NCBI GenBank assembly: GCA_041642175.1
Contig: JBEPWV010000001.1
Location: forward strand, 1-31,685
DNA from: Clostridia bacterium
GTDB taxonomy: Bacteria; Bacillota; Clostridia; Tissierellales; Dethiosulfatibacteraceae
Direction: 5' to 3'
Length of the DNA: 31,685 nt
This document shows, in pieces, positions 14,525 to 31,618 of the stretch. Below the pieces are notes generated by a model. The model had not been told where the DNA came from. It was given only the letters and a program-made list of their open reading frames with translations, and did not search any database. The position numbers and the translations under genes are program-made. Numbering within the stretch: the first letter of the stretch is position 1; each line of letters opens with the position of its first letter.

Positions 14525-15646
14525 TTATTCTACATATACTTTTAATTCTCCATACCCTTCTTCATCCATTTCCTCTAGAGGAATAAATTTAAGAGATCCG
14601 CTGTTCATGCAGTATCTTAGTCCTCCTTCTTCCTCTGGACCATCATCAAATACATGACCTAAATGTGTATCTCCGCTGATACTTAAAACTTCTACTCTTT
14701 TCATTCCTTGAGATGCATCTTCAACATATTTCAAAAGATTTTTGTCTATAGGTTTTGTAAAACTAGGCCACCCGCTTCTAGAATTATACTTATCTTTAGA
14801 GCTAAAAAGTGGTTGTCCCGTTACTATATCAACATATATACCTTTTTCTTTATTATCATTGTATTCATTATCAAAAGGTGGTTCTGTTCCCTTACCCTGT
14901 GTGATTTCATATTGTTCATCTGTAAGCATTTCTTTGATTTCTTCATCTGAAGGTTTTTCATAATTCTTTGGATTGATTTCCGGTTTTCTATTAGGTATGT
15001 CACTTAAATTAATATGACAGTATCCATTTGGATTTTTTTCTAGATAGTCTTGATGATATTCTTCCCCAATAACAAAGTTCTTCAAAGGCTCTACCTCAGT
15101 TACAATCTCACTGTCGTAATTAGGACTTATCTTTTCTATATAATTTTCTATAACTTCCCTGTCCTCTTCATCTTCATAGTATATCCCAGTTCTGTACTGA
15201 GTTCCAATATCATTACCCTGTCTATTTAAAATTGTAGGGTCAATAATTCTAAAATAGTACTCTAGAATATTATCAAGTTCTACAACATCCGGGTCATAAA
15301 CAACTCTGACAGTTTCAGTATGTCCTGTGGAGTCAATCTCTTGATAGCTGGTTTCTTCAGATTTACCGTTAGCATAGCCTACTTCTGTAAATTCAACTCC
15401 TATAATTTTGTCAAAATATGCTTCTACTCCCCAAAAACATCCTCCTGCTAAGTATATTTCTTTAAATTTACCCTTCTCATAATTTGGCATAACATCAACT
15501 TCCTTTCCTAATTCTTGATCTGTTTCTTCTCCTACTAGTTCATTCTCTTCTACATTGCTTCTATTTCCTAAAAATATTAAATATCCTAATAGTATTACTA
15601 CGATCACTATTAAAACATTTATGTATTCTTTTTTTAATATAACCAT
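14525..15646 (-). CDS. msrAB: Fused peptide methionine sulfoxide reductase MsrA/MsrB with an N-terminal membrane anchor
   Basis: MsrA motifs [18 protein letters not shown] and EEYHQDYL; MsrB motifs SGWPSF, HLGHVF and RYCMNS. The start is moved to ATG 15646 (AGGAG RBS), followed by one hydrophobic helix. Confidence 0.93.
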
Positions 15647-15754
15647 GTTCTTTCTCCTATATCTGAATTTATATAGCATAGTATTCATTTATGTATTTGA
15701 ATATATACCCATCTCAGCTCATTATATACTCTAAGAAGAACTTATTACATTAAA

Positions 15755-16431: not shown

Positions 16432-18219
16432 TTATTTTTTAATGTATTCGTTGAAGACTCCTCTTTGAGTATACTTTGTATGGAGTAATTCATGTGATTT
16501 ATGTCCTAGTGGTTTATCTAAGTAGTCTTCATATATTTTTTTAATAGCTGGATTTTCGTGAGATTTTCTGTATTCTTTACCTTCATCTTCTCTCCATATA
16601 GCTTGAATTCTCTTCTGTATAGTGTCTTTATCAGAAGATCTCGGTTGTCCTCCACCGCTTATACATCCGCCAGGACATCCCATAATTTCTATAAAGTGAT
16701 ATGGCGAATTACCTTCAGATATTTCTTTCATCAGTTGTTTCGCTCCCGACAATCCGCTGGTAACTGCTACTTTTACTGTTACACCATCTAAAAACTTATA
16801 ATCTTCTAAAGGATTTTCTATTTTTATATCAGCTGTTTTTATCTTTTCTAATCCTCTTATTGGCTCTACTCTAAGTTTATCAAAGGGTACTTCTCTACCA
16901 GTAACTACTTCATAAACAGTTCTTAATGCTGCTTCCATCACTCCACCGGTTGTTGCAAATATATCTGCTGCTCCAGTAGACAACCCTAGAGGGTCGTCAA
17001 ATTTATTATCCGGTAAAGTTTTAAAGTCTATACCTGCTTCTTTTATCATACTGGCAAGTTCTCTTGTTGTTAGTACAGCATCTACATTTTGTAATCCGTT
17101 ATTCATCATTTCTGGTCTTGATATTTCAAACTTTTTAGCTGTACAAGGCATTACAGATACAACAAATACATCTTCAGGTTTTATATTTACTTTTTCAGTG
17201 TAGTAGGTTTTGGCTAAAGCTCCCAACATCATATGCGGGGATTTACAACTTGATACATGATCCAGTGCCTTAGGAAAATCGTGTTCTACGTATTTTATCC
17301 ATCCTGGGCTGCAGCTTGTAATCATAGGTAAGACTGAATCTTTCCCTGTTAAAGCATTCTTAACTCTTTCTAGGAACTCATAACCTTCTTCTATTATAGT
17401 TAAATCAGCAGTAAAATTAGTATCAAATATATCATCAAATCCAATATCTCTTAATGCTGATACCATTTTACCTGTTACCGATGTGCCTGCTTCATAACCA
17501 AATTCTTCTCCTAATGCTGCCCTTATTGCCGGTGCTGTTTGTATAATGACTCTTTTATTATCATCAAATATCGCATCCCATACAGGCTTTGTTGCATCTT
17601 TTTCATATAAGGCTCCTACAGGACAAACTATTGTACACTGCCCACAGTTACTGCAATTCACACTATTTAATGGTAATTCCAAAGCTGGTCCTATTTCCGT
17701 TTTAAATCCCCTATTTTGAGGATTGATAATACCTAACTCCTGTAGTTCATTACATACAGTAACACACCTTCTACAGAGTATACATTTTGAAGCATCTCTG
17801 ACGATGGATGGAGAAGATTCATCTAGGAAAGGTTTTGATACTTCTCCTTCAAATCTAGATTCATCAACTTTGAGCATTTCTCCTAACTCTTGAAATTCGC
17901 AATTTTGATTTCTACTGCAGCTTAAACAATCACTTGGATGATCTGAAAGCATAAGTTCATATACGACTTTCCTTGCCCTCTTAACTCTTTGAGTGTTTGT
18001 TTTTACAACCATGCCTTCCCTTACAGGAACCATGCAGGAAGCTTGAAGGTTTTTCTCTCCTTCCACTTCCACAACACACATTCTACAGGAACCTACTTTA
18101 TGTATATCTTCAAGATAGCAAAGATTAGGAATTAAGATGTTGTTTTCTTTTGCTGCTTCTATTATAGTCAAACTTTCCTTACAGCTAATTTCTTTATTAT
18201 TTATTTTTAAATTTACCAT
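16432..18219 (-). CDS. hydA: [FeFe]-hydrogenase catalytic subunit (group A; 2Fe-2S, His-ligated 4Fe-4S, 2x4Fe-4S, H-cluster)
   Basis: H-cluster motifs TSCSPGW, MPCTAKKFE and EIMGCPGGCISGGGQP; F-cluster motifs HPSDCLSCSRNQNC, CILCRRCVTVC and CSNCGQCTIVCP. Confidence 0.96.
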   Translation of the reverse strand: MVNLKINNKEISCKESLTIIEAAKENNILIPNLCYLEDIHKVGSCRMCVVEVEGEKNLQASCMVPVREGMVVKTNTQRVKRARKVVYELMLSDHPSDCLSCSRNQNCEFQELGEMLKVDESRFEGEVSKPFLDESSPSIVRDASKCILCRRCVTVCNELQELGIINPQNRGFKTEIGPALELPLNSVNCSNCGQCTIVCPVGALYEKDATKPVWDAIFDDNKRVIIQTAPAIRAALGEEFGYEAGTSVTGKMVSALRDIGFDDIFDTNFTADLTIIEEGYEFLERVKNALTGKDSVLPMITSCSPGWIKYVEHDFPKALDHVSSCKSPHMMLGALAKTYYTEKVNIKPEDVFVVSVMPCTAKKFEISRPEMMNNGLQNVDAVLTTRELASMIKEAGIDFKTLPDNKFDDPLGLSTGAADIFATTGGVMEAALRTVYEVVTGREVPFDKLRVEPIRGLEKIKTADIKIENPLEDYKFLDGVTVKVAVTSGLSGAKQLMKEISEGNSPYHFIEIMGCPGGCISGGGQPRSSDKDTIQKRIQAIWREDEGKEYRKSHENPAIKKIYEDYLDKPLGHKSHELLHTKYTQRGVFNEYIKK

Positions 18220-18221
18220 AT

Positions 18222-21200
18222 CTATATCCTCCTATCGCATCTTAGACATCTCATAGCTTCAGCAATAGCGTTTAATTTATGAAATCCTACAGCAACTTCA
18301 TCAAAGTTATCAGTTCTCTTTTGAGGATCTAAGAATTTCATAGAAAATCTTTCATGTTCAACTATTTCTTTTTCATCTGTTGGTTTAGGAATTTCAATAT
18401 CTTCTCCAGTGTTTAGCTCTCCGCTTCCACCTAAATATTTGTCTATCGCCTCAGCTGCATCCTTCCCGTCTGCTATTGCTGTAATTGCTGTATCTGAACC
18501 TCTAGCTACATCTCCACCGGCAAATACTCCATCAAGTTTAGTCATAAAGGTATCTCTATCTGTTACGAAGGTTCCCCACTTTGTAATTTCAACTTCATCT
18601 TTATCAATAAATGGTAAATCTGAAGATTGACTTACTGCCGGTATAACCATGTCAGCTTCAATAATGAATTCAGAACCTTCAATTATTTCCGGTCTTCTTC
18701 TTCCACTGCTATCAAATTTATTAAGTTTCATTCTTTGACAAATTATAGAATCTACTTTATCACTTCCTTGGAAACTTTTTGGCGATACTAATTCCATTAT
18801 TTCAATTCCTTCTTCTACAGCTTCTTTTATTTCTCTATCATCAGCGGGCATATCCTCTTTAGTCCTTCTGTATAGTATTGTTACTTTTTCTGCCCCAAGT
18901 CTTACTGAAGTTCTTGCCGCGTCAATAGCTGTATTTCCTCCACCAATAACCAAGACTTTTTTACCCACCTTTACATTTTTTTCAAGGTTTACATCTTTTA
19001 AAAAGTCCAGTCCATGATATACATTTTTTAATTCTTCTCCTGGTATTCCAATTCTATTTGAAAACTGTGTTCCTGTTGCTATGTATACAGCATCAAATTT
19101 ATCTTTTATTTCTTCAAATTCTATATCTCTACCTACTTCTGTGTTAAGGTGTACTTTAACTCCTACCTGTTTTATAAGATTTACTTCGTGTTCTAGTATA
19201 TCGTTTGGCAATCTGTATTCCGGTATGCCGAAAGCCAGTACTCCTCCTTCAATAGGTTGGGATTCGAATACTTCAACCTCATATCCCAATCTAGAAAGGT
19301 AGTATCCGCAGGTTAAGCCTGAAGGTCCTGCTCCAATTATACCGATGCTCTTATCTTTTTTTGGAAAAACAAGATCCATATATGGTTCCTCATGTTTCAT
19401 GACATAATCTGACACAAATCTTTTTAAATCTGCTACAGCTAAAGGTTCATCAAGTTGTGCTCTTCTACATTTACTTTCACAAGGATGAGTACATACTCTT
19501 CCACATATAGCTGGAAAAGGATTATCCTTTCTTACTAAATTATAGGCATCTCTAAATCGACCTTCTGCAATTAAGGATATATATCCAGGTACATTAACCC
19601 CTGCAGGACAGGCATTTTCACAAGGAGAAATGAATAATTCAGCACAAACTCCTGCTTTGCAGTATTTATATTTTATATGTTCTTCATATTCTTCTCTAAA
19701 GTTTTCTATCATACTTAATACGGGATTAGGTGCAGTTTGCCCTAAACCACATACAGCTGTCTCTTGAATTGTTTCTCCTAATTCTATTAGAAGTTCAATG
19801 TCTCCTTCTTTACCTTCACCTTCAGTTATTCTCTCAAGAATTTCAAGCATTCTTTTAGTTCCAACTCTACAAGGTACGCATTTACCGCAGGATTCTTCCT
19901 GGACAAATTCCATAAAAAATCTTGCCATATCAACCATACAGGTATCTTCATCCATGCTTATCAAACCACCTGAACCCATTATAGCACCAAGTTTTTTAAG
20001 AGAATCGTAGTCCACCGGTGTATTTAGGTTTTCACTTGTGATGCATCCACCGGAAGGTCCTCCTGTTTGGGCTGCCTTGAAGGTTTTATTTCTAGGAATT
20101 CCTCCACCTATATCAAAAATTATATCTCCTAACGGCGTTCCCATAGGTACTTCAACTATTCCTGTATTGTTTATAGCTCCAGCTAATGCAAATACTTTAG
20201 TTCCTGTATTTCCTTCTGTACCGTACCTTTTATACCAGGTGCTTCCTTCTCTAAGTATCTGAGGTACATTCGCGAAGGTTTCAACATTATTTATTATAGT
20301 AGGTTTATCAAACAAACCTCTTTGGAAAGGAAATGGAGGTTTCTGTCTAGGTTCTCCTCTTTCTCCTTCTATAGATTCCATAAGTGCAGTTTCTTCTCCA
20401 CATACAAAAGCACCGGCACCTATTCTTATTTCTAAATCAAAGTCAAAATCACTTCCAAATATATTCTTTCCAAGTATTTTGGCTTCCCTAGATTTTTTTA
20501 TGGCATCTTGTAATCTTTCAACTGCTATAGGATATTCGGCTCTTACGTATACATATCCTTTGCTTGCTCCTATAGCGTATCCACCGATAATCATTCCTTC
20601 TATAACTCCGTAAGGATCTCCTTCTAATAAGCTTCTATCCATAAAAGCTCCCGGATCTCCTTCATCAGCATTGCAAACAAGATATTTTTCTTTACCTTCT
20701 GCTCTTAAACCTGCTTCCCATTTCACTCCAGTTGGAAATCCTCCTCCACCTCTACCTCTTAAGCCTGAATCTTTTAATTCCTCAACAACATCTTCAGGAG
20801 ACATTTCCTTTAAGGCCTTGGCTGCACCTTTAAATCCATCTCGGGAAATATATTCTTCAAGGGAAGAGTAATCTATGCTTCCACAGTTTTTAAGAGTTAA
20901 TTTTATCTGCTTATTAAAATAATCGATATCCTTTATATAAGGAACATGTTTTTTGTTAATTTTATCGTAAAAGGTTTTTCTCTCTAATATATTCCCTTCT
21001 ATAAAGTGACTTTTAACGATATCAGGAATATCCTCAGGATCTAACTTTGTATAAAAAACTCCTCCCGGCATAACTATAATAACAGGTCCTATATCACAGG
21101 TACCCATACATCCTGTTTGTTTAACTACCACCTTGTTAGATAGGTTATTATCTTCAAGACTTTTTACTAGAGAATCCATAACTTTGCCGCAATCAGAGGA

Positions 21201-21320
21201 AATACATCCTGCTCCTGAGCAAACAAGTGCTTCATAATCATATGTAGACATGTTTTTATTATGTTTTGATTTAATTTGGTCTAAATCTTCTGGTTTATGG
21301 ACATATGTTGATTCTTTCAT
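18222..21320 (-). CDS. hydB: NuoF/HydB-like flavoprotein fused to a C-terminal GltD/NfnB-like FAD/NAD(P)H domain
   Basis: N-terminal thioredoxin-like 2Fe-2S. NuoF motifs SGLRGRGGGGFPTG, NADEGDPGAFMDR, GAGAFVCGEE, GGPSGG and CGKCVPCR. Then the GltD-like CGRVCTHPCESKC, IIGAGPSG, VIGGGNTAIDAAR and FAGGD. Confidence 0.92.
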   Translation of the reverse strand: MKESTYVHKPEDLDQIKSKHNKNMSTYDYEALVCSGAGCISSDCGKVMDSLVKSLEDNNLSNKVVVKQTGCMGTCDIGPVIIVMPGGVFYTKLDPEDIPDIVKSHFIEGNILERKTFYDKINKKHVPYIKDIDYFNKQIKLTLKNCGSIDYSSLEEYISRDGFKGAAKALKEMSPEDVVEELKDSGLRGRGGGGFPTGVKWEAGLRAEGKEKYLVCNADEGDPGAFMDRSLLEGDPYGVIEGMIIGGYAIGASKGYVYVRAEYPIAVERLQDAIKKSREAKILGKNIFGSDFDFDLEIRIGAGAFVCGEETALMESIEGERGEPRQKPPFPFQRGLFDKPTIINNVETFANVPQILREGSTWYKRYGTEGNTGTKVFALAGAINNTGIVEVPMGTPLGDIIFDIGGGIPRNKTFKAAQTGGPSGGCITSENLNTPVDYDSLKKLGAIMGSGGLISMDEDTCMVDMARFFMEFVQEESCGKCVPCRVGTKRMLEILERITEGEGKEGDIELLIELGETIQETAVCGLGQTAPNPVLSMIENFREEYEEHIKYKYCKAGVCAELFISPCENACPAGVNVPGYISLIAEGRFRDAYNLVRKDNPFPAICGRVCTHPCESKCRRAQLDEPLAVADLKRFVSDYVMKHEEPYMDLVFPKKDKSIGIIGAGPSGLTCGYYLSRLGYEVEVFESQPIEGGVLAFGIPEYRLPNDILEHEVNLIKQVGVKVHLNTEVGRDIEFEEIKDKFDAVYIATGTQFSNRIGIPGEELKNVYHGLDFLKDVNLEKNVKVGKKVLVIGGGNTAIDAARTSVRLGAEKVTILYRRTKEDMPADDREIKEAVEEGIEIMELVSPKSFQGSDKVDSIICQRMKLNKFDSSGRRRPEIIEGSEFIIEADMVIPAVSQSSDLPFIDKDEVEITKWGTFVTDRDTFMTKLDGVFAGGDVARGSDTAITAIADGKDAAEAIDKYLGGSGELNTGEDIEIPKPTDEKEIVEHERFSMKFLDPQKRTDNFDEVAVGFHKLNAIAEAMRCLRCDRRI

Positions 21321-21338
21321 TAATTATCACCTCTCAAT

Positions 21339-21845
21339 TTAATCATTGTAGTATTCAGATAAAATAGAATCGATTTTATCAGGATTTACCATTTTATATA
21401 CTTTATCATTAATAGTTATTGCCGGGGCCAATCCGCAGGCTCCTATACATCTCATAACCTCTAAAGTAAACATTCTATCCTCTGTGGTTTCTCCAACATC
21501 TATATCGAGAAGTTCTTTAAACTTTTCTAATATTTTCTTTCCTCCTCTTACATAGCATGCCGTACCTAAGCAAACTCTGATAGTATATTCTCCTCTCGGT
21601 GTGATTGAAAAAAATGAATAAAATGTTACTACACCACTAATCTTTGATAAAGGAATATCAGTCTTTTTAGATATGTGTTTCTGTACTTCAATAGGCAAAT
21701 GTCCGTATATTCCCTGAGCCATATGAAGTATTTGTATAAGGCTTCCTTCCTTGTCCTTATACTCTTCAATGATTTCCGTAATTCTCGAAAGTTTCTCTTC
21801 ATCGGTCTCTTCAGCACATTTGCATGTTTTGGTTTTTTCAACCAT
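21339..21845 (-). CDS. hydC: NuoE/HydC-like 2Fe-2S subunit
   Basis: VCLGTACYVRG and CIGACGLAP motifs; AAGGAG RBS. Confidence 0.93.
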   Translation of the reverse strand: MVEKTKTCKCAEETDEEKLSRITEIIEEYKDKEGSLIQILHMAQGIYGHLPIEVQKHISKKTDIPLSKISGVVTFYSFFSITPRGEYTIRVCLGTACYVRGGKKILEKFKELLDIDVGETTEDRMFTLEVMRCIGACGLAPAITINDKVYKMVNPDKIDSILSEYYND

Positions 21846-22118: not shown

Positions 22119-22841
22119 ATGAAAATGAAAAAAAAGCAATGTGAAGTAAGGTATTTATATAATAGCGGATTTACTATTGAAACAAAAAATACATTTATTA
22201 TAATCGATTATTATTCCAGCCAAAATCCTATTGATTTAAAAAAGTACGATGATAAAAATATTTACGTATTGGTTTCCCACAATCACGCCGATCATTACAC
22301 TAAAAGAATATATGATTGGAATGAAGAATATAATGTTAGATATGTCCTTCACGATGATATCAATGCACCGAGAGAAATAAATCCTGATTATGTAATTGAA
22401 GATAAAAGATATCACATAGATAAGACATTTCAAGTTGAAACTTTCGGTTCAACTGATAAAGGAGTTTCTTTTCTAATTTATGTTGATGAATTAATATTAT
22501 TTCACAGTGGAGATCTTAACTGGTGGAAATGGAATAGCGACTCAAAAGATGCTCAGCACCATGAGGAAGTATCTTATAAAGAAAAAATCGAAAAATTAAA
22601 AGGAAATAAAATAAATATTGCTTTTGTTCCGGTTGATCCAAGATTAGAAGAAAACTATGACCTAGGTGTTAAGTATTTTGCAAATAAAATAAATGCACAG
22701 GTTATAATACCCATGCATTTTAGAGATTCATTATCTTCATTGAGAAACCTTGATGAAGACTGGATGGGTATTGATACATCTTCAAAATTTCAACTAATAA
22801 CCGAAAAAGGTCAGAGCTTTTTCTATGATTTCAATTATTGA
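22119..22841 (+). CDS. MBL-fold metallo-hydrolase
   Basis: SHNHADH, FHSGDL and IPMH metal-binding motifs. Confidence 0.9.
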   Translation: MKMKKKQCEVRYLYNSGFTIETKNTFIIIDYYSSQNPIDLKKYDDKNIYVLVSHNHADHYTKRIYDWNEEYNVRYVLHDDINAPREINPDYVIEDKRYHIDKTFQVETFGSTDKGVSFLIYVDELILFHSGDLNWWKWNSDSKDAQHHEEVSYKEKIEKLKGNKINIAFVPVDPRLEENYDLGVKYFANKINAQVIIPMHFRDSLSSLRNLDEDWMGIDTSSKFQLITEKGQSFFYDFNY

Positions 22842-22869
22842 TTTTAAATCCTTTTGATTTAATCTTTAT

Positions 22870-23256
22870 TTATTTATATTTTGTATTTACCACCAATGAT
22901 TCATAAAGCTTTGTTTTTTCATAATCTATTTCTAGTTCTTTAACAAAATCTTCAGTCCCTTTTGGTATAGCAATATATTTTCCTTCAACTTCATATATAT
23001 AATGATCAGTTGCTTGTTGTTCATCCAGAACAATGCCAAAGGCTCTATCTCCTCAGCAGCTGCCTCTTATCATTACAAATAGATCATCATTTCCTTTTAG
23101 TTTCATTATTTCTTCTGCATTTTCATGAGCAATATCTGTTATGTCTACCTTTATCAACTGTTCTTCTAACTTTAGAGCTGTATCTCCATATTTATCTGTA
23201 TTACAACCGGATAAAATAAATATTAAAAGCACAGAGATTATAACGAGCTTTTTCAT
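22870..23256 (-). CDS. Predicted 128-aa HesB-like selenoprotein lipoprotein (in-frame TGA at 23053-23055 read as Sec)
   Basis: Manual translation through TGA gives MKKLVIISVLLIFILSGC...VDITDIAHENAEEIMKLKGNDDLFVMIRGSC-U-GDRAFGIVLDEQQATDHYIYEVEGKYIAIPKGTEDFVKELEIDYEKTKLYESLVVNTKYK*. Supported by the lipobox LSGC, HesB-like motifs on both sides of the TGA, and the AAGGAG RBS. Confidence 0.8.
23017..23033 (-). promoter_or_regulatory. Candidate bacterial SECIS hairpin
   Basis: mRNA UUGUUC-UGGAU-GAACAA. The G-containing apical loop starts 26 nt after the UGA. Confidence 0.6.
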
Positions 23257-23387
23257 CTGATTCTCTCCTTCTCAAATATAAATATTTATAATTCCTCATA
23301 TTTTATAATTTCATATTACCATTTTATTTAAAGTTTATGAAGGATAAATATTAGTTTAACAAGATTATAAATTTCAATCTACTATAA

Positions 23388-25347: not shown

Positions 25348-25836
25348 ATGAAAAAAGAAATACTGTTATTAGGAAATCCAGAACTTTACGGAATAAGTGA
25401 ATCTGTACAAAAAGATGAATTAACAGAAGTTGAAGTTATTGTAAATAATCTTCATGATACTTTGATAGATTTTAGAAATAAATACGGTGCGGGAAGAGCA
25501 ATTGCAGCACCGCAAATAGGAGTTAAAAAAAGGATTATTTATATGTTCATTGACAACCCAACTGTCTTTATAAACCCAAAACTTATTTTTCCAGATGAAG
25601 AAATGATGGAAGTAATGGATGATTGTATGTCATTTCCCAATCTATTTGTTAAGGTGAGAAGATATAAAAGAGCCATCATAGAATACAAAGACTTAAATTG
25701 GATAGATCAAGAAATGAAATTAAAAGGAGATTTATCTGAACTACTCCAACATGAATACGATCATTTAGATGGAATTTTAGCTACAATGCGAGCTAAAGAC
25801 AACAAAGCATTTTTCATGAAAAAATCAAGCAATTAA
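25348..25836 (+). CDS. def: Peptide deformylase-like protein with variant motifs
   Basis: GRAIAAPQIG, DDCMS and QHEYDHLDG. The start is moved from GTG 25339 to ATG 25348. Confidence 0.8.
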   Translation: MKKEILLLGNPELYGISESVQKDELTEVEVIVNNLHDTLIDFRNKYGAGRAIAAPQIGVKKRIIYMFIDNPTVFINPKLIFPDEEMMEVMDDCMSFPNLFVKVRRYKRAIIEYKDLNWIDQEMKLKGDLSELLQHEYDHLDGILATMRAKDNKAFFMKKSSN

Positions 25837-27353
25837 ATTTGCTTGATTTTTTCTATATACTCACTTATTTTTTCAGATGCATTATTTTTTATATGATTTT
25901 GATTTTCAACTTCTCCTTTTAAAAAATCCCAAAAAGCTGCAGTCATATTTGCTTCGTTTATTGCAAATATCATAAAAGGTTCTTCATTCTTAGATACAAT
26001 CACTCCAACATCTTCTTTGCAGTATATGCAATATTCTTTTTTTTCGTCTTTCTTCTCTAAAATCAAATTGTAGTTTTCGTACTTTTCATTTATTTTTTTG
26101 ATATTTTCCAAATGTTCAAGTAATTCATTTTTTTTATAATAAACAGGTTCCAATCCTAATATGTTCGAAAAATTAATCATAACATTTTCAAACTTTACAT
26201 CTTCAATTTCAGGTATAGATATTATATCCTCAAACTTACAATTATTTAGATTTTCTTCAAAAATCTTCTTTCTCTTTTTTATGTATTCTTTTAATTCAAT
26301 TTTTTTATCATAATTAATTCTATTTATTATTTTATTAGCTGTATTTAGAGGCATCGTTGTTAAAGAGAGAGGCTTAGTCTTAAGCACTACATCTCCCTGT
26401 TCCTTCTCAAATTCGGAAAGTGTTGATAAGTACTCTTCTCTACTGTTTTTATTGAAAATTTTCATTAAAGGCTTGCATAATCTCAAGTAATTATTAAATT
26501 CTATTTCTATTCCCTTCACAGCTTTAATATTTTGAACCAAATAGTTGATTGTACTGTCTTCCATATTTCCAACTCCTGATGCTGTAAGGGTTGCTGTATT
26601 AGGTGCTACAAACATAGTTCTTTTAAAAATTCCATCTCTTTTTCTCGGGTAATAATATGGCTCTATAGCTCCTGTCATATACAAAGGCATCCATTCCGAT
26701 ATAGATGCTAACATTTCATAGAGATTTCTACTTACTGTGTGTATTATTTTAATTTTGTTTCCCTTTAAAATAACTTGTATCATGAGTTTTTTCCATTTAT
26801 CTCTAAAAGCTGAGTTTCCCGTCAACCATTCCATACTTTCATCACTAAAAAGCAAAAGAGTTTGAGGTTGGTTTTCTTCTAAAACAAGAGATAAAAAATC
26901 TGAAACTCCTTCTCTTTTTCCCTCTATCCCCTTGTACATCTTTACATCCTTTTTAATAATATTATTACTGTTAACATTAGTTCCCCAACTATCTGTTTTT
27001 TTAAATTGAAAATTTGAAAATCCTTCTAGAAATCCTTCAATTGCTTTGCTTTCACCTTCCTTTTCATCTGTAAGCCATTCGTACAAGATTTGAGATGTGT
27101 CTTTGCTTCCATTGTTAATAAACCCACTACTTTTTAAAACCTCCAAAATCGCTTTTCTTTGATAACTCTCTGTAATATGTTTTATAAAGTAGTCTGCCAT
27201 ATATTTTACATAGTTTTCACTCTTTGCTAAATTTCTTTTACCCCGTCTAAGTCTACTTATATAAGAAGAATCCAGTGAAGTATACATAGCTAAATCACTA
27301 TTTTTTGTCTTTGTTAAATTCATTAAAAAATCAAGTTTTTCATTAAAATTCAT
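25833..27353 (-). CDS. Large transcriptional regulator: N-terminal XRE-like HTH plus an uncharacterised domain of about 430 aa
   Basis: NSDLAMYTSLDSSYISRLRRGKR is XRE-HTH-like. The gene is divergent from the SLH operon. Confidence 0.7.
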   Translation of the reverse strand: MNFNEKLDFLMNLTKTKNSDLAMYTSLDSSYISRLRRGKRNLAKSENYVKYMADYFIKHITESYQRKAILEVLKSSGFINNGSKDTSQILYEWLTDEKEGESKAIEGFLEGFSNFQFKKTDSWGTNVNSNNIIKKDVKMYKGIEGKREGVSDFLSLVLEENQPQTLLLFSDESMEWLTGNSAFRDKWKKLMIQVILKGNKIKIIHTVSRNLYEMLASISEWMPLYMTGAIEPYYYPRKRDGIFKRTMFVAPNTATLTASGVGNMEDSTINYLVQNIKAVKGIEIEFNNYLRLCKPLMKIFNKNSREEYLSTLSEFEKEQGDVVLKTKPLSLTTMPLNTANKIINRINYDKKIELKEYIKKRKKIFEENLNNCKFEDIISIPEIEDVKFENVMINFSNILGLEPVYYKKNELLEHLENIKKINEKYENYNLILEKKDEKKEYCIYCKEDVGVIVSKNEEPFMIFAINEANMTAAFWDFLKGEVENQNHIKNNASEKISEYIEKIKQI

Positions 27354-27808: not shown

Positions 27809-30800
27809 ATGTATAAGAAAATTTTAAGTTGGTTATTAACGGTCATAATGATTTTTTCAATGTTTGGGGGGATAGGTTTAGAAGGTTTTGGTATAAGTGA
27901 TCCTGAATGTAAAATTGATGAAACAGAATATTTATTATTTGCAGATGCTTTAACCGCTTCAGTTGATGGCGATACTATTACTTTATTAAAAAACGTTAAT
28001 CACACTGGTAAAATTACAATCACCGGCAATAAAATCACCTTCAATTTAAATGGGTTTAATCTCAATTTATCTAATACTGGTGATACTACGGTTGAAGTTA
28101 GTTCAGGTGGAGAAATCGATTTAGTAGGAGAAGGTGAATTTAATGTAGTAGGAACTAATTTAGGGACAACTGGATATTATGATCTTAGAGGTACTGTAAC
28201 TATTAAAAATGGAGGTAAAATAACAGTTACTAATGTCACTTCTACAGGTAATAGTGGCTATCCTGCTTATGGTATATATGTTTCGGATGGAGCGGCAACT
28301 GTTTTAAATAATGTTGAAACTTCCGGAACCAAACGTTTAGGAATATTTGCTACAGGTATTAACTCTTCTGCAGTAGTTTATAATAATGTTAAATCTTTAA
28401 ATAGTGCAGCTGTACAATTATATGATAATTCAAATATTACCGTTTATGGTAATGTTGAGGGCGTTTACGGTGTAGATGCTAATAATTCTACCGTTTTAGT
28501 TAAGGGTGATGCTGTTGGAGTATCAGCTGGCGCTAGAGCTCTGAGTGGAGCTCAAGTTTATATCGGAGGCAATACAACGTCTTCAGGAAATAATTCCTAC
28601 GGAGCGTATTCAACTCAAGAGAATTCATTTATTAGTGTTTCTGGTAGTGCTATAAGCTATGGAGATTACAGTAGAGGAACTTTCGCTGGAGCTGGAGCAG
28701 AAGCTTTGATTATAGGAAACTCAGAGTCAAGAGGAAATGATGGAGATGGAGTTTATACTACTTATAATTCCAATGTAAGAATTAAAGGAAATGTAATATC
28801 AGAAAGTGGCACTGGAGTATGGGCTTGGCATAATTTGGAAAATAAACCTTCTGTTACAATCGATGGTGAAATAGTTGCTGAAACCTTTATAGAGTTTGGT
28901 AGTAGTCCTACCACTTACAATATAGATAATTATTTCACTCCAACTACTAAAGTAGGTTATTTTACATACACAGACGGCAACAGTACTGTTTGGGTTTCAT
29001 ATCCAGCTGTTTGGGGCATAGAGATAGAGTCTACTGATATGTATCCTTTTGCTGGTGGAGATGGTTCATCAGAAGAAACAGCTTACGAGATATCCACTGC
29101 TAATCAATTGGCTCAACTTGCATATAATGTAAACAACGGAAATAAGTATACAGATAAATATTTTAAACTATCTGGAGATATAAATCTTTCAGGAAAAGAA
29201 TGGGTACCTATTGGAAATATTGAAGCAAATTATTTTAATGGATTTTTCGATGGAAATAATAATTGTATAGAAGGTCTAACAATAGGTAGTACAACTGATT
29301 TTAACTCCTCATATTATGCTTCAGGTTTGTTTGGAGTAATTGGGTCAAATTCATTAATAGAAAATTTAAAAGTACTAGATTCAACAATATATTCTAATAC
29401 TACCATGGGCACTGGTATGTTAGCAGGATATAATAATGGTGGAAATATAAATCATTGTGGTACTTCAGGAGAAATCACTTCATATTCTAGTATTGGAGGA
29501 CTAGTAGGTCGAAATGCTGGAAGTATATATAATTCATACAGTGATGTAGATTTGACAAGTGATAGAAATTCTATAGGAGGATTTGTTGGATATAATGATA
29601 GTGGTAATATTTATAACTGTTATGCAACTGGTGACGTTGTTGGAGGAGCATACTCTCATGCAGGTGGATTCATCGGTTATACTGTTTCCTGGAGCGGTAC
29701 AAGTATTATTGAAAATTCCTATGCTACAGGTAATGTTTCAGGTAGCGCCTGGGGATATTTAGGCGGTTTTTACGGACGGAGCTATCAAGGAACTTCTTTT
29801 ATGAATACTTATTGGAATGCAGATGCCGAAATAATTGCTTCTGAATACCATGGATATACTCCTTCAGTTCATGGAAGCAACGAAAATGGTCTTGCTAATC
29901 CTTCTGCTACCATGAAGAGCGAAACCTTTGTTACCCAATTAAATAATAATCTACCTGAACCAAAAACTGATTATTACAAATGGATTATAGATACAAGAAA
30001 AAACCAAGGATATCCTATTCATAATAGTATTTTTACAATAGCACCAGAAGAACCATCTCCATCTCCTAGACCATCCTTACCTAGTCTTGAAATTGAAACA
30101 ACAACTCTTAAAGATGGAATTGAAGGCGAAGAATACAAAGTTGAATTAAAAGCTGAAGGTGGAATATCTCCATACAGTTGGTCAGCAGAAGGACTTCCTT
30201 CAGGTCTTTCAATTAATAAAGGAGGCCTAATCTCAGGCACCTCAGAAGAAAATGGAAGTTTTTCAGTAAAAATAGAACTTATGGACAGTAGAAATTACTA
30301 CAGAAGTAAGATTTTCGATTTATTAATAGAAGGTGTTAAAGATGATGAGAATAATGAAGATACAGAAAGTGAAGAAGCTTCTTTTATTGATATAAAAGAC
30401 CACTGGTCAAAGGATTATATAAAGGAAGTTGTATCTAAAAATATAATAAAAGGTTATCCAGATGGTACCTTTAAACCTGAAAACAAAATCACAAGAGAAG
30501 AATTTGCATCTATACTAATAAGAGCATTAGGATTACAAACTGAGACAGGTATGTCATTTGCAGATACCCTAAATAGATGGTCAACTGATAGTATTTCAAC
30601 AGCTGTATATTACAATATTATCGCCGGCTACAATGAAAACACCTTCGGTCCTAGTGATCCTATTACTAGAGAGCAAATGGCTGTTATGATAGCTAGGGCT
30701 CTAAAGTTAGATGGACAAGATGAAGAGACAACTCTAAGGGATGTAAATCAATCATCATCCTGGGCAAAAGCTTCTATTATAGCTGCCGTAAAAGAAGGCT

Positions 30801-30910
30801 TATTAGATGGTTATCCAGATGGTACATTCAGAGCTAAAAACAATTTAACTAGAGCAGAAGCTATAAAAGTAATATTTAATCTATTGAACAATTTAGAAAA
30901 TTCTAATTAA
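27809..30910 (+). CDS. Secreted S-layer-homology (SLH) surface protein with a beta-helix-like region, GLUG-type repeats and a putative Ig domain
   Basis: Signal peptide; repeats GGLVGRN/GGFVGYN/GGFIGY; Pro-rich linker; GLPSGLSI Ig-like segment; three SLH repeats (GYPDGTFKPENKITREEFA, FGPSDPITREQMA, GYPDGTFRAKNNLTRAEA). Confidence 0.9.
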   Translation: MYKKILSWLLTVIMIFSMFGGIGLEGFGISDPECKIDETEYLLFADALTASVDGDTITLLKNVNHTGKITITGNKITFNLNGFNLNLSNTGDTTVEVSSGGEIDLVGEGEFNVVGTNLGTTGYYDLRGTVTIKNGGKITVTNVTSTGNSGYPAYGIYVSDGAATVLNNVETSGTKRLGIFATGINSSAVVYNNVKSLNSAAVQLYDNSNITVYGNVEGVYGVDANNSTVLVKGDAVGVSAGARALSGAQVYIGGNTTSSGNNSYGAYSTQENSFISVSGSAISYGDYSRGTFAGAGAEALIIGNSESRGNDGDGVYTTYNSNVRIKGNVISESGTGVWAWHNLENKPSVTIDGEIVAETFIEFGSSPTTYNIDNYFTPTTKVGYFTYTDGNSTVWVSYPAVWGIEIESTDMYPFAGGDGSSEETAYEISTANQLAQLAYNVNNGNKYTDKYFKLSGDINLSGKEWVPIGNIEANYFNGFFDGNNNCIEGLTIGSTTDFNSSYYASGLFGVIGSNSLIENLKVLDSTIYSNTTMGTGMLAGYNNGGNINHCGTSGEITSYSSIGGLVGRNAGSIYNSYSDVDLTSDRNSIGGFVGYNDSGNIYNCYATGDVVGGAYSHAGGFIGYTVSWSGTSIIENSYATGNVSGSAWGYLGGFYGRSYQGTSFMNTYWNADAEIIASEYHGYTPSVHGSNENGLANPSATMKSETFVTQLNNNLPEPKTDYYKWIIDTRKNQGYPIHNSIFTIAPEEPSPSPRPSLPSLEIETTTLKDGIEGEEYKVELKAEGGISPYSWSAEGLPSGLSINKGGLISGTSEENGSFSVKIELMDSRNYYRSKIFDLLIEGVKDDENNEDTESEEASFIDIKDHWSKDYIKEVVSKNIIKGYPDGTFKPENKITREEFASILIRALGLQTETGMSFADTLNRWSTDSISTAVYYNIIAGYNENTFGPSDPITREQMAVMIARALKLDGQDEETTLRDVNQSSSWAKASIIAAVKEGLLDGYPDGTFRAKNNLTRAEAIKVIFNLLNNLENSN

Positions 30911-31066: not shown

Positions 31067-31618
31067 ATGTTTATATTTGTTGGTATTATAATAGTAATAG
31101 CAGTATATTTGATTTTTGCATATAATAAATTTATAACCCTTAAGGAAAGAGTTGCCAATGCCTGGTCGCAGGTGGAGGTACAGTTAAAAAGAAGATACGA
31201 CCTTATTCCAAATCTTGTAAACACTGTGAAGGCTTATGCTAAACACGAGCAGGAAACTTTTGAAAAAATTACTCAAGCGAGATCCCAGGCTATAAATGCA
31301 CAATCTGTGAATGAACAGGCTCAAGCTGAAAGTCAACTTACAAACACTCTTAAATCTTTATTTGCAGTAGCTGAAAGCTATCCTGAATTAAAAGCAGATG
31401 CAAATTTTAGAAATTTGCAGGATGAACTTACAAATACAGAAGGTAAAATATCTTTTTCAAGACAGTTTTATAATGACACCGTACAGAAATTTAATACGAT
31501 GATTAAGTTATTTCCAAACAGTCTAATTGCTGGAATATTTAATTTCACTGAAGCTGAATATTTCAACTTAGAAGAAGAGCCTGAAGCGAGAGAAAATGTT
31601 GAAGTAAAATTTGATTGA
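31067..31618 (+). CDS. lemA: LemA family protein
   Basis: N-terminal TM, AWSQVEVQLKRRYDLIPNLV, AESYPELKADANF and YNDTV..FN..I..FP. Confidence 0.95.
   Translation: MFIFVGIIIVIAVYLIFAYNKFITLKERVANAWSQVEVQLKRRYDLIPNLVNTVKAYAKHEQETFEKITQARSQAINAQSVNEQAQAESQLTNTLKSLFAVAESYPELKADANFRNLQDELTNTEGKISFSRQFYNDTVQKFNTMIKLFPNSLIAGIFNFTEAEYFNLEEEPEARENVEVKFD

Follow-up and report, generated by a model that had tools for sequence, protein, structure and literature searches.

The window (the whole 31,685-nt stretch of DNA analysed here) carries on its minus strand, at 22870..23256, a selenoprotein gene, which we predict with a probability of roughly 0.9 to encode a 128-aa prolipoprotein with the UGA of codon 68 decoded as selenocysteine (Sec). 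Based on its orthologs and on dN/dS values, this is a real selenoprotein gene, an exported form of a known selenoprotein family and no new system. An ATG (23256-23254), which lies 8 nt downstream of a Shine-Dalgarno sequence AGGAG read from the sequence (23265..23269, minus strand), opens the frame of 128 codons. The frame passes through adjacent Cys67 and Sec68 codons, TGC TGA (23053..23058, minus strand; TGC at 23058-23056 and TGA at 23055-23053), continues without a stop for 60 further codons and ends at a TAA (22872-22870, minus strand), 28 nt from the end of a convergent gene for an MBL-fold protein. With the TGA translated as U, the product has 128 residues, including ...MIRGSCUGDRAFGIVLDEQ.... 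The initial annotation had described the frame up to the TGA, the 60-codon continuation, the TAA and the 28-nt gap, all of them with exact coordinates and quoted sequences. Its proposal that TGA read-through hides a selenoprotein at this site is borne out by the conservation of the TGA, purifying selection, a hairpin, the presence of selA, selB and selD in the genome, and the IscA/HesB fold of the product.

A TGA occupies the same codon in the DNA of all 12 relatives of what we term clade A, which come from four genomes of the same genus and eight metagenome contigs; the clade A set comprises nine distinct full-length sequences (the window's own included), the ortholog L015 and two partial contigs. 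A six-frame search of 60 related genomes revealed the orthologs in the four same-genus genomes, with 52–83% identity and exactly one in-frame TGA each, and the continuation past the TGA is 52–88% identical across the 12 other DNAs. Both TGC (Cys67) and TGA (Sec68) are unchanged in the nine distinct full-length sequences compared, and neither Cys nor any other sense codon was seen at the Sec68 site among the clade A relatives examined. According to the initial annotation, homologs should carry Cys or TGA at this codon with conservation on both sides; they do carry TGA there, never a non-Cys sense codon, and both flanks are conserved. Thirteen full-length database proteins show W at the position of Sec68, which is a signature of code-4 gene calling on short contigs. 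A Cys version of the lipoprotein type was not found among 5.8 billion clusters, 1.8 billion representatives and 401 genomes of the order. The CC motif of the protein P0021 was considered as a Cys-Cys counterpart and rejected, since the alignment puts its first, and not its second, Cys at Sec68; L048, a PpiC-type lipoprotein, and P0018, a repeat protein, were discarded as homologs.

Pairwise Nei-Gojobori estimates gave dN/dS values of 0.04–0.08 for codons 69-128 (dS 0.4–1.7), against 0.17–0.80 for codons 19-67; thus the part behind the TGA is under the strongest protein-level constraint in the whole gene. The open continuation is beyond chance, because the TGA codon is conserved in 12 other DNAs and the purifying selection is strong. 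We have also found relatives of the gene in RNA: a 457-nt contig from a salt-lake metatranscriptome, originating from a ~91%-identical relative, covers 22842-23227, a match from a second salt-lake RNA run covers 22982-23131, and neither differs at 23053-23055. These contigs are compatible with transcription through the TGA, as weak evidence, because DNA carry-over in RNA libraries is possible. The constraint behind the TGA excludes a pseudogene or an assembly error, and we regard it as hardly conceivable that the gene represents a pseudogene, a sequencing error or a recent nonsense mutation, with a 67-aa fragment or nothing as its true product: the public annotation does end at the TGA and the metagenome-assembled genome (MAG) is fragmentary, but the same TGA recurs in 12 independent clade A DNAs and in a second clade (B), the downstream dN/dS stays at 0.04–0.08 with dS of up to ~1.7, and the RNA contigs of relatives retain the TGA. 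As the initial annotation had anticipated of standard pipelines, orthologs from Clostridiales and Tissierellales MAGs are entered in NCBI nr as hypothetical proteins of 67 aa (HCX03756.1, MFZ7133912.1 and MBG0764130.1). In JGI data some are named "outer membrane lipoprotein-sorting protein", and the 3' part bears the name "IscA".

The MAG amounts to 1.42 Mb in 280 contigs, is 74.5% complete, and has a hypersaline-lake metagenome as its best-matching run. Elsewhere in this genome TGA is an ordinary stop, in agreement with the initial annotation. In the window, 25 of the 27 long ORFs stop at TAA or TAG and two at TGA; TGA ends the convergent MBL-fold gene (22119-22841) and lemA (31067-31618), the product of which matches the Pfam LemA profile end to end. 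Genome-wide, TGA is the stop codon in 148 of 1101 long ORFs, and under table 11, in which TGA is a stop, 79% of the assembly falls within ORFs of 150 aa or more. These stops and this coverage exclude a general reassignment of TGA, and the window showed no conserved gene in which an in-frame TGA takes the place of a Trp or Gly codon. A genome-wide reading of TGA as Trp or Gly (codes 4 or 25) instead of site-specific Sec agrees with the W that database gene calls give at the site, but has next to no chance of being correct in view of the stops and the coverage, of the lemA TGA situated exactly at the end of the profile, of code-4 calls in clade B that overrun a true TGA stop into unconserved tails, and of the Sec machinery encoded in the genome.

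This machinery comprises selA, selB and two selD genes, all above the curated cut-offs, with selB divided between contigs C236 and C63. The selD paralogs (C56:2691-3614 and C236:1656-2576) each have their own in-frame TGA (Sec-type SelD), and on C236 selA and the start of selB come after selD. The tRNA-Sec gene was not found in the 74.5%-complete MAG, where ARAGORN finds only four tRNA genes altogether; it is present in all five same-genus genomes tested (~74 bits versus a threshold of 47). The genomic check suggested by the initial annotation therefore succeeded for selA, selB and selD, whereas for tRNA-Sec it succeeded in the congeners, the MAG with its four tRNA genes being uninformative on this point.

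Downstream of the UGA we found a bSECIS-type hairpin (23012..23036, minus strand), made of a core stem-loop (23033-23017) and two possible lower G-C pairs (23036/23035 with 23013/23012). The core, UUGUUC-UGGAU-GAACAA, has a stem of 6 bp and extends from +23 to +39 (U of UGA = +1), and its apical loop UGGAU contains the G demanded of bacterial SECIS elements. In other families of the order, the canonical genes for HesB-like selenoproteins exhibit UUGCUC-UGGAU-GAGCAA at the identical offset; the loop UGGAU/C is common to both types, and the pair 26-36 is U:A in the window gene and C:G in the canonical genes, a compensatory change that makes one covarying pair. Clade B carries the same hairpin. 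In the nine distinct full-length sequences (the window's included), six of the seven codons of the hairpin (I75-Q81) are frozen at synonymous sites, the sole synonymous change affecting the third base of the D78 codon, at the very end of the loop; by comparison, 42 of 66 other codons for invariant residues vary (one-sided Fisher p=0.017). Leu77 is always encoded by CUG, which accounts for 5.5% of Leu codons in the genome. The hairpin is short and overlaps the strongly conserved peptide VLDEQ, so that its conservation is partly at the level of protein. Its folding energy is not better than that of shuffled sequences (z = -0.56), and an Rfam search retrieved no meaningful match at E up to 10. 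As the energy is not significant, the support for a SECIS element consists of position, synonymous-site conservation and covariation.

The initial annotation had also claimed a HesB/IscA-like identity for the protein. A domain of this fold was assigned to residues ~36-128 (22873..23151, minus strand) from weak NCBIfam matches, hhalign, and an AlphaFold2 model compared with known structures by Foldseek. The read-through protein scored 27.3 bits against NF038090 IscA_HesB_Se (E=3.5e-6, cut-off 85), 23.4 bits against TIGR00049 (cut-off 58.8) and 20.7 bits against TIGR01911 (cut-off 66.35). It showed no PF01521 match in Pfam, and single-sequence searches (phmmer versus the PDB, Pfam, ESM Atlas) returned nothing useful. 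Canonical neighbours from relatives pass TIGR01911 in three of three cases (66.5–70.9 bits versus 66.35), and with NF038090 the same three proteins obtain 88 bits, which is a pass, and 84.9 and 79.2 bits, below the cut-off of 85. In a comparison of profiles, hhalign aligned the lipoprotein-type profile with the canonical/IscA profile at 99% (E=2e-18, 96 columns), with the Sec columns superposed, and in a mixed profile the Sec column coincides with the conserved Cys of HI1723, AQ_1857 and E. coli IscA (Cys35). The AlphaFold2 model has a mean pLDDT of 73.8, with values below 50 in the Sec loop (67-80). Its top eight Foldseek matches in the PDB are IscA, SufA or HesB proteins (probability of at least 0.96), and all named matches but one in AFDB are IscA, SufA, ErpA or ISCA proteins. 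The model and the alignments assign the mature domain to the IscA/HesB (A-type carrier) fold and put Sec68 where these carriers have their invariant ligand Cys. The claimed identity is therefore upheld by the hhalign result, the Foldseek matches and the weak NF038090 hit, and so is the placement of the TGA at the Sec position of the family, which aligns with the Sec of canonical HesB-like proteins and with the conserved Cys of IscA, ErpA and SufA. The designation "HesB-like selenoprotein" holds as far as the Sec position is concerned, but the protein departs from regular members of the curated family in that it is exported as a lipoprotein, pairs Cys with Sec and lacks a C-terminal Cys.

Export is indicated by a putative lipoprotein signal peptide at the N-terminus (23203..23256, minus strand), composed of MKK, a hydrophobic core and the lipobox LSGC, with Cys18 at 23205-23203. 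All 26 family members examined obey the lipobox rule, in contrast to the two cytoplasmic relatives. In Pfam LPAM_1 the window protein reaches 12 bits versus the threshold of 20, and it gives weak N-terminal matches to lipoprotein families. The score below the threshold could be taken to mean that the hydrophobic segment functions as an uncleaved anchor or as an ordinary signal peptide; we consider this quite improbable, because the lipobox Cys (position 17/18) is kept throughout both clades against a variable remainder of the signal peptide, clade B passes LPAM_1, and the genome encodes both lgt (238.8 bits) and lspA (106.4 bits), each over its cut-off.

The second and more distant lipoprotein clade, clade B (loci L049, i.e. 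G259:C425, and L052-L056; proteins P0031-P0038), has the lipobox LTSC and the motif SSAGUGTP, that is, a Sec without an adjacent Cys, and it has no C-terminal Cys. Consequently, the invariants of the entire family are export, fold and a single Sec. In database versions of clade B proteins the Sec TGA and the true TGA stop are both read as W, which produces spurious C-terminal tails. A sigma-54 PAS activator and an HpaB/AbfD-like gene lie downstream of the clade B gene. No neighbour genes are shared between clades A and B, and the neighbourhood does not constrain the function.

The same genome encodes a canonical HesB-like selenoprotein (C144:2521-2790, minus strand), which has no signal, contains ...SGFGUGGPQLGLVLDEQ... 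and ends with ...SSC. This copy shares with the window gene the U:A version of the stem and the VLDEQ...DH peptide, which points to a duplication within the lineage. Most likely, the gene arose by duplication of a cytoplasmic Sec-containing HesB-like gene, followed by the gain of a signal peptide, and judging from the shared sequence features the C144 copy is likely to be the parent of the lipoprotein copy.

HesB-like selenoproteins (TIGR01911 HesB_rel_seleno / NF038090 IscA_HesB_Se) were described by Zhang et al. (2006, PMC1794560) and are listed with the motif UxGP in Table 1 of a 2026 review of the prokaryotic selenoproteome (PMC13188914), in which neither the word "lipoprotein" nor the phrase "signal peptide" occurs. 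The window protein has in common with them the fold, the Sec column, the offset and loop of the SECIS element and the ...FG.xLDEQ... segment, as well as the occurrence in anaerobic Sec-using Bacillota, the canonical copy being present in this genome too (C144). The canonical proteins are small (~100 aa) and cytoplasmic, with a C-terminal Cys, whereas the window protein adds a lipoprotein signal peptide and a 17-aa linker, has CUGDR (Cys67 before Sec68) in place of GUGGP, lacks the C-terminal ...GGSSxC cysteine and the conserved GF, and belongs to a type found only in the Sec form. In place of UxGP, the window protein has U-G-D-R, the ortholog L015 U-G-T-I-P and clade B U-G-T-P.

The A-type Fe-S carriers IscA, SufA and ErpA (PF01521, TIGR00049; structures 1r94, 1s98, 1x0g, 2d2a and 2apn) share the fold, judging from Foldseek and profile comparison. 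In the window protein Sec68 replaces their first invariant Cys (IscA Cys35), with selenium in place of sulfur, and the C-terminal CxC ligands are missing, whereas the carriers have one loop Cys and two C-terminal Cys. The window protein also differs from them in its predicted extracytoplasmic, lipid-anchored location and in the lack of a Pfam match.

A likeness of description, with no claim of homology, exists with SaoB, SaoX and SaoC of the SAO system from Clostridioides difficile and other anaerobes (Haft & Gwadz, bioRxiv 10.1101/2022.07.06.499078). These are likewise signal-peptide or lipoprotein CU selenoproteins of anaerobic Firmicutes, whose database versions end at the TGA and whose CU was proposed to be a metal-binding site (bioRxiv 10.1101/2022.07.06.499078). 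Their folds are unrelated to that of the window protein (ABC substrate-binding or unknown fold), and they are encoded in a nine-gene operon, in contrast to the monocistronic gene for the HesB-fold protein found here. Haft & Gwadz mention no exported selenoprotein of the HesB fold (bioRxiv 10.1101/2022.07.06.499078).

The selenoprotein gene is monocistronic, with SDR and CN-hydrolase genes divergent from it and the MBL-fold gene convergent. Beyond the latter lies a NuoE/NuoF-GltD/[FeFe]-hydrogenase operon (16432-21845, minus strand), which encodes a NuoE-like protein, a 1032-aa NuoF-GltD fusion and HydA. This cluster is absent at this position in L041/L037 and L046, where a hydrogenase fragment or nothing remains. 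Two relatives have a decayed MBL gene alongside an intact selenoprotein gene and no hydrogenase operon, which brings a GDSL hydrolase and a membrane-anchored MsrAB within 1–2 kb. In the window, the MsrA-MsrB fusion (14525-15688, minus strand) starts with a transmembrane segment of ~75 aa that precedes the PMSR domain, and hence is probably an extracytoplasmic methionine sulfoxide reductase; in L041 and L046 the gene for this fusion lies 1–2 kb from the selenoprotein gene. On the other side, the window contains a gene for a 1033-aa protein (27809-30910, plus strand) with a beta-helix, a GLUG motif and three C-terminal SLH domains, which indicate an S-layer-anchored surface protein, and a 506-aa ORF (25833-27353, minus strand) with no Pfam match at E below 1e-5 that is 93% conserved in L039.

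A different association was observed for the canonical genes. At the loci L018, L019, L021 and L026, which represent several genomes from two families, the canonical HesB-like selenoprotein gene adjoins a gene for a P-type ATPase, the first heavy-metal-associated domain of which reads M-T-U-A-S-C, with Sec for the first Cys of MTCxxC. L026 was confirmed to contain both HMA and E1-E2_ATPase, and a gene for a TlpA-like thioredoxin lipoprotein (WCPYC) is situated upstream at these canonical loci. The Sec-bearing P-type ATPase as a neighbour suggests that HesB-like selenoproteins are linked to the handling of copper or other soft metals.

Based on these features, we propose the following sequence of events. 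SelB with Sec-tRNASec would bind the hairpin while the ribosome is on the UGA, leading to insertion of Sec, and the precursor would be exported via the Sec translocon. Processing by Lgt and LspA would then lipidate Cys18 and cleave the signal peptide, to leave a domain of ~110 aa tethered to the outer face of the cytoplasmic membrane, in which the flexible Cys67-Sec68 loop may serve as the working site. The protein is probably not a classical Fe-S carrier; such a role is unlikely because the protein lacks the two C-terminal Cys with which A-type carriers complete their Fe-S site. For the function, a soft ligand site for a thiophilic metal or metalloid ranks first of three possibilities, as a tentative proposal, followed by selenenylsulfide redox chemistry and then by the binding of Fe or Fe-S.

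The redox possibility, which we consider somewhat unlikely, is that Cys67 and Sec68 form a redox-active selenenylsulfide and that the protein is an extracytoplasmic oxidoreductase, for example one that feeds or protects surface proteins such as MsrAB. Mammalian thioredoxin reductase possesses a C-terminal Gly-Cys-Sec-Gly redox centre that is capable of forming a selenenylsulfide, and the S-C-U-G of the window protein resembles this GCUG in that a vicinal Cys-Sec is followed by Gly. The resemblance is an analogy only, as protein and context are unrelated and the small domain found here has its Cys-Sec pair within an internal loop. A redox role is assumed for the majority of prokaryotic selenoproteins (PMC13188914), and the MsrAB gene is found within 1–2 kb in two relatives, but this proximity is a matter of synteny among close kin, and in the window the MsrAB gene is 7 kb away, with the hydrogenase operon in between. 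Moreover, the fold is not thioredoxin-like, and clade B is without the Cys, so that a Cys-Sec selenenylsulfide cannot be the mechanism of the whole family.

It is more doubtful that the protein acts as an A-type carrier outside the cytoplasm, holding iron or an Fe-S cluster at a dimer interface by means of the Sec (and Cys67) of two protomers. The IscA fold and the Sec at the ligand Cys position agree with such a role, and two Cys-Sec pairs per dimer could conceivably supply four ligands; against it speak the absence of the C-terminal Cys pair of A-type carriers, the lack of Fe-S assembly genes nearby, and clade B, which has a single Sec and no other candidate ligand.

Returning to the metal or metalloid site, we tentatively regard the window protein as the founding member of an undescribed family, so far Sec-only, of lipid-anchored surface IscA/HesB domains from halophilic anaerobic Bacillota, in which the lone Sec (together with Cys67 in one clade) may capture or relay a thiophilic metal, a metalloid or selenium outside the cytoplasm. 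The finding corrects a systematic annotation error, whereby such genes appear as 67-aa hypothetical proteins, under a lipoprotein-sorting name, or with the codon read as Trp. As no curated family model catches the gene, a dedicated model would recover genes of this kind in metagenomes. The protein adds to the recently noticed exported Cys-Sec proteins of anaerobic Firmicutes, and it gives the HesB-like family, to which no function has been assigned in the ~20 years since it was discovered, a new predicted location in the cell. The retention of Sec together with the loss of the other Cys ligands of A-type carriers suggests that in this branch the chemistry is carried by the single Sec/Cys35 position. 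If our proposal is correct, it would be the first case of the A-type-carrier fold at work outside the cytoplasm.
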